Origin: Escherichia coli
GTDB lineage: Bacteria > Pseudomonadota > Gammaproteobacteria > Enterobacterales > Enterobacteriaceae
Strand: one strand, 5' to 3'
DNA: 64,000 nt
NCBI RefSeq assembly: GCF_003334405.1
Contig: NZ_QOWM01000006.1
Shown: positions 62,706 through 62,892 of the stretch, one piece after another
How positions within the stretch are numbered: the first letter of the stretch is position 1
How the letters are laid out: each line of letters begins with the position of its first letter
The notes under the pieces: model-generated
The model's input: only the letters and a program-made list of their open reading frames with translations
Database searches by the model: none
What the model was told of the DNA's origin: nothing
Position numbers and translations under genes: made by a program

Positions 62706-62795
62706 TGATTATTTATTATCGTCATTAAGTTAGTCGTGGCATCTCGAATGCCTGAAACGGGCAACGCCGTCAATGAAATGGATGTTAAGGCATCC

Positions 62796-62803
62796 AGACG
62801 TCT
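62796..62803. promoter_or_regulatory. Perfect MetJ box (AGACGTCT) upstream of metN, flanked by degenerate 8-bp repeats (62780..62811)
   Basis: Palindromic met-box consensus found about 95 bp upstream of the metN start; neighbouring octamers match 4-5 of 8. Confidence 0.45.
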
Positions 62804-62892
62804 AAATCAATCAGGTTTATGCGAAGAGCACTTTCTTGCAGGTCGAAACATGCGATACTAGCGTCACATGCCTTATTAAGGAGCTATAAAAG

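Follow-up and report, generated by a model that had tools for sequence, protein, structure and literature searches.

Gene organization around the metN–gmhB intergenic region

The window analysed here, that is, the whole stretch of 64 kb, ends in the metQ-metI-metN / gmhB / rrnH region of E. coli. The genes metN, metI and metQ are those of the methionine ABC importer, which places the target of the operator discussed below within methionine transport. The main features of the region are the following:

61674..62705, minus strand: metN, ATPase of the methionine ABC importer, gene 1 of metNIQ
62706..62892: metN–gmhB intergenic region, 187 bp
62893..63468, plus strand: gmhB (yaeD, b0200), GTG start, heptose 1,7-bisphosphate phosphatase, divergent from metN
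63509..63536, plus strand: rrnH P1, TTGTCT-16-TATAAT, with its −35 hexamer starting at 63509, 41 bp past the gmhB stop
63619..63646, plus strand: rrnH P2

An earlier note on this DNA, made from the sequence alone, had described a metNIQ control region with a MetJ site in 187 bp common to the divergent gmhB, and the coordinates 62706..62892 agree with it. The 401 bp around the intergenic region are present at no less than 95% identity, with metN and gmhB annotated, in 5425 of 5426 complete E. coli genomes. Positions 221500..223940 of MG1655 are identical to the window except for one base, with a coordinate offset of +159,940, and the positions mapped in that strain are transferred here on this basis. 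The sole mismatch among these 2441 bases, G at window 63801 and A at MG1655 223741, falls within the rrnH leader, immediately ahead of the 16S gene.

Downstream, gmhB runs straight into the rrnH promoters, as had also been pointed out: the −35 hexamer of P1 follows the gmhB stop at the distance given above, and no terminator-like site is detected on the plus strand between the two (63469..63508). Since no such structure precedes rrnH P1, transcription of gmhB may continue into the rRNA operon. For rrnH P1, the upstream activating region typical of rrn P1 promoters should overlap the 3' end of gmhB. At 63462..63709 (plus strand), Rfam also gives a match to Ysr197 ('Yersinia sRNA 197') that stays below threshold, with 145 bits where the gathering score is 167. 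The match sits on the rrnH P1 and P2 promoters and the leader, so this family seems to represent the rrn promoter-leader region and not a separate sRNA. In the Enterobacterales loci L001-L020, the draft contigs stop 0.8 to 1.4 kb upstream of metN, just past gmhB. Because these ends fall where an rRNA operon would break the assembly, the order metN, divergent gmhB, rrn appears to be conserved across Enterobacterales.

Three tandem met boxes and their significance

Scoring of the window followed Augustus & Spicer 2011 (BMC Genomics 12:558, PMC3228920, Table 3), whose information-weight matrix and thresholds require 3.15 bits of a box, one quarter of the 12.58 bits of the consensus, and 12.58 bits of a whole site. 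Our analysis detects a sole qualifying site in the 64 kb, located at 62780..62803 and scoring 20.43 bits. On the metN strand it reads AGACGTCT, GGATGCCT, TAACATCC, three contiguous and in-phase 8-bp boxes, with positions below counted from the metN transcription start site (TSS):

62796..62803, minus strand: met box 1, AGACGTCT, perfect palindromic consensus, 12.58 bits, −29..−22, in the promoter spacer and adjoining the −35 hexamer
62788..62795, minus strand: met box 2, GGATGCCT (AGGCATCC on the plus strand), 5/8 consensus matches, 4.22 bits, −21..−14, in the promoter spacer
62780..62787, minus strand: met box 3, TAACATCC (GGATGTTA on the plus strand), 4/8 consensus matches, 3.63 bits, −13..−6, containing the −10 hexamer TAACAT

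The earlier note had recognized a single perfect octamer with degenerate neighbours. This is indeed what is found, as AGACGTCT has one exact match in the window (62796..62803) and the neighbouring octamers match the consensus at 4/8, 5/8 and 3/8 positions. The puzzle that it derived from this, one perfect box against the need of MetJ for two, dissolves once perfect boxes are no longer confused with boxes, the two neighbours on the metN side passing the threshold at 4.22 and 3.63 bits. MetJ matrix scoring, which it had proposed for 62780..62811, gives the three-box site, and the remaining octamer 62804..62811 fails. That octamer, AAATCAAT on the plus strand with 3/8 consensus matches, is rejected as a fourth box at −9.9 bits and corresponds to the −35 hexamer; at the other end, AATGAAAT (62772..62779) is rejected at −19.4 bits.

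The octamer alone is not significant, with 0.61 copies of AGACGTCT expected per 64 kb and one copy or more in 44 of 100 shuffles, and these numbers would suit a perfect octamer that arose by chance in a region that is not a MetJ site. Against this reading, none of 500 dinucleotide-preserving shuffles reaches 20.43 bits (maximum 20.27, with a mean of 0.59 qualifying sites per shuffle), which shows that the tandem array, and not the lone octamer, exceeds chance. The array moreover is located on a methionine transporter promoter with a mapped TSS, the orders bearing MetJ conserve the site and the others lack it, and repression by MetJ has been measured, as presented below. A chance origin is thus so improbable that it may be set aside, the cited data having already refuted it. 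On the minus strand, a terminator-like hairpin at 62796..62779 is formed by boxes 2 and 3 through their GGATG/CATCC dyad; its position upstream of the metN TSS rules out a terminator.

Promoter and leader of metN

The promoter elements of metN are located as follows:

62805..62810, minus strand: −35 hexamer TTGATT, read from the sequence, with a 17-nt spacer to TAACAT
62787..62782, minus strand: −10 hexamer TAACAT
62774, minus strand: TSS (MG1655 222714), 69 nt upstream of the ATG

The TSS at 222714 on the minus strand is supported by 83 reads in Kim et al. 2012 (PMC3415461), where the listed upstream sequence ends ...TTGATTTAGACGTCTGGATGCCTTAACATCCATTTCA, and the same study reports a homologous metN TSS with the same upstream sequence in Klebsiella pneumoniae. 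In the portion of the Cappable-seq list of Ettwiller et al. 2016 (PMC4782308) covered here, this TSS was not found. The −35 hexamer reads TTGACT in Yersinia, Hafnia, Photorhabdus and others. Counted from the mapped TSS, the three boxes span −29..−6, that is, the promoter spacer together with the −10 hexamer. As the boxes cover these two elements, MetJ would block RNA polymerase, a mechanism that we infer from the geometry.

A consensus promoter scan recovered neither of the actual promoters, that of metN or that of gmhB. Its match on the minus strand, ATGCCA-16-GATAAT at 62742..62715, is located inside the mapped 5' UTR, has no TSS support and was rejected. As for the leader itself, no Rfam match to an RNA element is detected within 62500..63460, and the fold z-score of the metN 5' UTR is −0.28, indicating no unusual folding. 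In addition, metN has no recognisable Shine-Dalgarno sequence; the A/U-rich GACGATAATAAATAATCA precedes its ATG (62706..62730, minus strand) and is well conserved in Enterobacteriaceae.

Conservation of the operator

A search of the GTDB species genomes with MetN gave 80 loci, the orders that bear MetJ being assigned after Augustus & Spicer 2011 (PMC3228920). In Enterobacterales, all 21 loci have a divergent gmhB and, upstream of metN, a qualifying site at 61 to 103 nt from the ATG. Three boxes are scored in 20 of the 21, and two in the Enterobacter locus L007 (site 85 nt upstream of the ATG), which is due to one change in box 3. In the other MetJ-bearing orders, 15 of 17 loci have a qualifying site upstream of metN, making 36 of 38 with Enterobacterales. 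Among them, most Vibrionaceae loci have 3 or 4 boxes that reach over a −10-like region, and two boxes are found in the Orbaceae locus and in one from Pasteurellaceae, whose second locus (L034) has none. In Bacteroidota, Oceanospirillales and Firmicutes, a qualifying site upstream of metN is detected in none of 42 loci.

An alignment of 20 Enterobacterales metN–gmhB intergenic regions presents two conserved blocks. The first, 62780..62810, consists of the three boxes and the −35 hexamer and has a majority fraction of 0.88 to 0.99; the second, 62849..62859, is the gmhB promoter, with 0.94. The remainder stays at 0.43 to 0.60 (flanks 0.55 to 0.60), except for the Shine-Dalgarno block of gmhB at 62878..62883 (0.90). 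Within the first block, 7 of the 8 positions of box 1 are invariant in the 20 sequences. In box 2, positions 2, 3, 6 and 7 are invariant and variation is confined to positions 1, 4, 5 and 8 (A/G, C/T, G/A, T/C), all tolerated by the matrix; RNA polymerase imposes little sequence constraint on a promoter spacer, where this box sits. In box 3, every position is invariant in 19 or 20 of the 20 sequences. The last two bases of box 3, 62780..62781, lie beyond the −10 hexamer and do not vary in any of the 20 sequences, whereas the next four, 62776..62779, do. Both the pattern of box 2 in the spacer and the invariance of 62780..62781 speak for a constraint on the weak boxes in their role as met boxes, beyond that on promoter elements. 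Because of the overlap between box 3 and the −10 hexamer, the conservation of this box may be due in part to the promoter and not to MetJ contacts.

It is worth discussing here whether the true operator has fewer boxes, namely two or one, with the perfect box and at most one neighbour bound by MetJ and TAACATCC kept only as the −10 hexamer. Box 3 contains TAACAT and, at 3.63 bits, is barely over a threshold of 3.15 bits that is arbitrary, and a single change in box 3 suffices for the Enterobacter locus to score two boxes. The two invariant bases beyond the hexamer, next to four that vary, speak for a third box, and so do the Vibrionaceae operators, which with their 3 or 4 boxes extend over the −10-like region, and the published curation, which gives three boxes (PMC3228920). 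We therefore consider a shorter operator unlikely. Even in that case the functional conclusion would be unchanged, since two boxes suffice for MetJ (PMC3228920).

Comparison with catalogued MetJ operators

The site is in accordance with the published catalogue. For MG1655 b0199 (metN), Table S1 of Augustus & Spicer 2011 (PMC3228920) lists agacgtctggatgccttaacatcc with 3 boxes, 20.45 bits and a gap of 74. The site in the window is the same 24 bp as this operator of metNIQ (metD, abc-yaeE-yaeC) in E. coli K-12, with the same 74-nt gap to the metN ATG and 20.43 bits against 20.45, so that there is no difference between them. According to papers that cite them, Merlin et al. 2002 and Gál et al. 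2002 were the first to report it. The same table gives identical metN boxes in Salmonella LT2 and Klebsiella and a variant in Yersinia pestis (PMC3228920). The feature is therefore an ordinary one that is already known, a catalogued MetJ operator of metNIQ; what is added here is the position of the boxes relative to both mapped TSSs and the conservation footprint.

The other MetJ operators of E. coli are those of metA, metB/metJ, metC, metE/metR, metF, metK, mmuP and ybdH/mtnE. Like them, the metN operator is composed of tandem in-phase 8-bp boxes (2 to 4) related to AGACGTCT and located near a promoter. When the E. coli operators in Table S1 are rescored, their totals range from 15.0 to 31.2 bits, and the 20.43 bits of metN are inside this range. 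Among the 29 boxes of the nine operators there is one perfect box, that of metN, and the other eight operators have none, which shows that degenerate boxes are the norm. Overall, 7 of the 29 boxes stay under 5 bits, and metK, metA, mmuP, metF and metR/E too have boxes in the range of 3 to 5 bits. Boxes 2 and 3 of metN are among the five weakest of the 29, and metN alone pairs a perfect box with two of the weakest (12.6, 4.2 and 3.6 bits); in the other operators the scores are moderate and more evenly distributed among the boxes. This uneven box strength makes the metN operator mildly distinctive. Natural MetJ operators are built of degenerate boxes, and counting perfect octamers alone consequently underestimates them.

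Repression of metNIQ by MetJ

Published data show that MetJ represses metNIQ in vivo. With the native 400-bp region upstream of metN fused to lacZ, the repression ratio of wild type to ΔmetJ is 0.05. In RNA-seq of an E. coli ΔmetJ strain, metN, metI and metQ are raised by log2 3.98, 3.80 and 3.61 (PMC12977542), and in Salmonella Typhimurium ΔmetJ, metN is raised by log2 5.84 in LB and 4.27 in SPI-2 medium, i.e. 19- to 57-fold (PMC9239280). Taking both species together, derepression of metN amounts to about 14- to 57-fold (PMC12977542, PMC9239280). An independent reconstruction also has metNIQ as a member of the core regulon (PMC4239095). The expression of metN in a metJ mutant, which had been put forward as a check on the site, is thus already on record: metN is derepressed (ratio 0.05, log2 3.98), contrary to what an absence of repression at this promoter would give.

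The gmhB promoter and MetJ

The divergent gene has elements of its own in the intergenic region:

62851..62859, plus strand: gmhB extended −10, TGcGATACT, with TG at −15/−14 and the hexamer at −12..−7, a conserved block that fits the Cappable-seq TSS
62866, plus strand: gmhB TSS (MG1655 222806), 7 nt past the −10 hexamer, with a 27-nt leader to the GTG at 62893
62878..62883, plus strand: gmhB Shine-Dalgarno sequence AAGGAG

This plus-strand TSS at 222806 has a Cappable-seq score of 31.4 (Ettwiller et al. 2016, PMC4782308), and the TSS table of Kim et al. 2012 (PMC3415461) contains none for gmhB. In the alignment of 20 regions, the T of the TG in TGnGATACT is invariant and the G is kept in at least 90% of the sequences. 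Weak plus-strand Cappable-seq TSSs with scores of about 2 are found at window 62727 (MG1655 222667), antisense to the metN 5' UTR, and, inside gmhB, at 62938 and 62947 (222878 and 222887). The metN and gmhB TSSs are 92 bp apart and back to back. Seen from the gmhB TSS, the boxes are located at −86..−63, outside the core promoter of gmhB, which the operator does not overlap.

The earlier note had raised the possibility of cross-talk in the shared region, in the sense that MetJ bound there, or a derepressed metN promoter firing, alters the transcription of gmhB and possibly the read-through into rrnH. With the promoters arranged back to back and about 20 bp between their −35 regions, the upstream contacts of two polymerases could overlap, and the stretch from gmhB to rrnH P1 has no terminator-like site. 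In Salmonella ΔmetJ, furthermore, yaeD (gmhB) changes slightly upward in both media, by log2 +0.44 (p 0.07) and +0.24 (p 0.31). Neither change is significant, adjusted p being about 1 in both, whereas metN rises 19- to 57-fold in the same samples (PMC9239280). In E. coli, the 38 genes listed as differentially expressed in the ΔmetJ RNA-seq do not include gmhB (PMC12977542). The distance of the boxes from the core promoter and the conserved extended −10 with a TSS of its own also argue against such an effect, and b0200 is absent from the published met-box table (Augustus & Spicer 2011, PMC3228920).

A precedent is found in the metC–exbB intergenic region, where likewise a MetJ operator is shared with a divergent gene outside methionine metabolism. 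There exbB is bound by MetJ through the metC operator region, yet it is not regulated in vivo (Augustus & Spicer 2011, PMC3228920). The evidence differs in kind, being a direct E. coli reporter for exbB, and Salmonella RNA-seq, absence from the E. coli list and promoter geometry for gmhB. MetJ cross-talk onto gmhB is accordingly not supported, and we regard it as very improbable. On this point the earlier suggestion did not hold, and when an operator lies over one of two back-to-back promoters only, a common intergenic region does not mean common regulation.

Regulation of metNIQ and gmhB

On the whole, we conclude with high confidence that 62780..62803 is the three-box MetJ operator of the metNIQ promoter, and that gmhB is transcribed from its own promoter without MetJ control. 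The boxes, their significance and conservation, both TSSs, the repression of metN and the null result for gmhB in Salmonella rest on this analysis or on the cited data, and from these we infer the number of MetJ dimers on the metN operator and the occupancy of all three boxes. With ample S-adenosylmethionine, dimers of MetJ would occupy the tandem boxes cooperatively and deny RNA polymerase access to the metN promoter, presumably by steric occlusion. The perfect box probably nucleates the binding, and dimer-dimer contacts would bring about the filling of the two weak boxes. Under methionine shortage, the metN promoter would be free and the importer made. Transcription of gmhB proceeds from its extended −10 promoter, 92 bp away and back to back with that of metN.

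As a speculation, and a rather doubtful one, the combination of a perfect box with two weak ones, the weakest of which also serves as the −10 hexamer, might make metNIQ respond to S-adenosylmethionine differently from the met operators of biosynthetic genes, with, for instance, tight nucleation and very strong repression (ratio 0.05). Independently of this, a firing metN promoter might shift the expression of gmhB slightly, by up to about 1.3-fold. The data indicate neither. Beyond annotation, the importance of the site is small, as it is a repressor operator of the textbook type, already catalogued and tested in vivo.

MetN homologues in Bacteroidota

The Bacteroidota loci deserve a separate remark. 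Met boxes are detected upstream of metN in none of the 12 loci from this group. In nine of them, L022, L033, L036, L038, L040-L042, L044 and L045 (Pedobacter, Flavobacterium and others), MetN is 61 to 72% identical to that of E. coli, and the adjacent MetI is about 70 to 73% identical to E. coli MetI. The homologues in Halomonas and Firmicutes are more distant, with 50 to 58% identity. That the Bacteroidota MetN and MetI are closer to those of E. coli than the Halomonas and Firmicutes homologues suggests an old transfer between Gammaproteobacteria and Bacteroidota.
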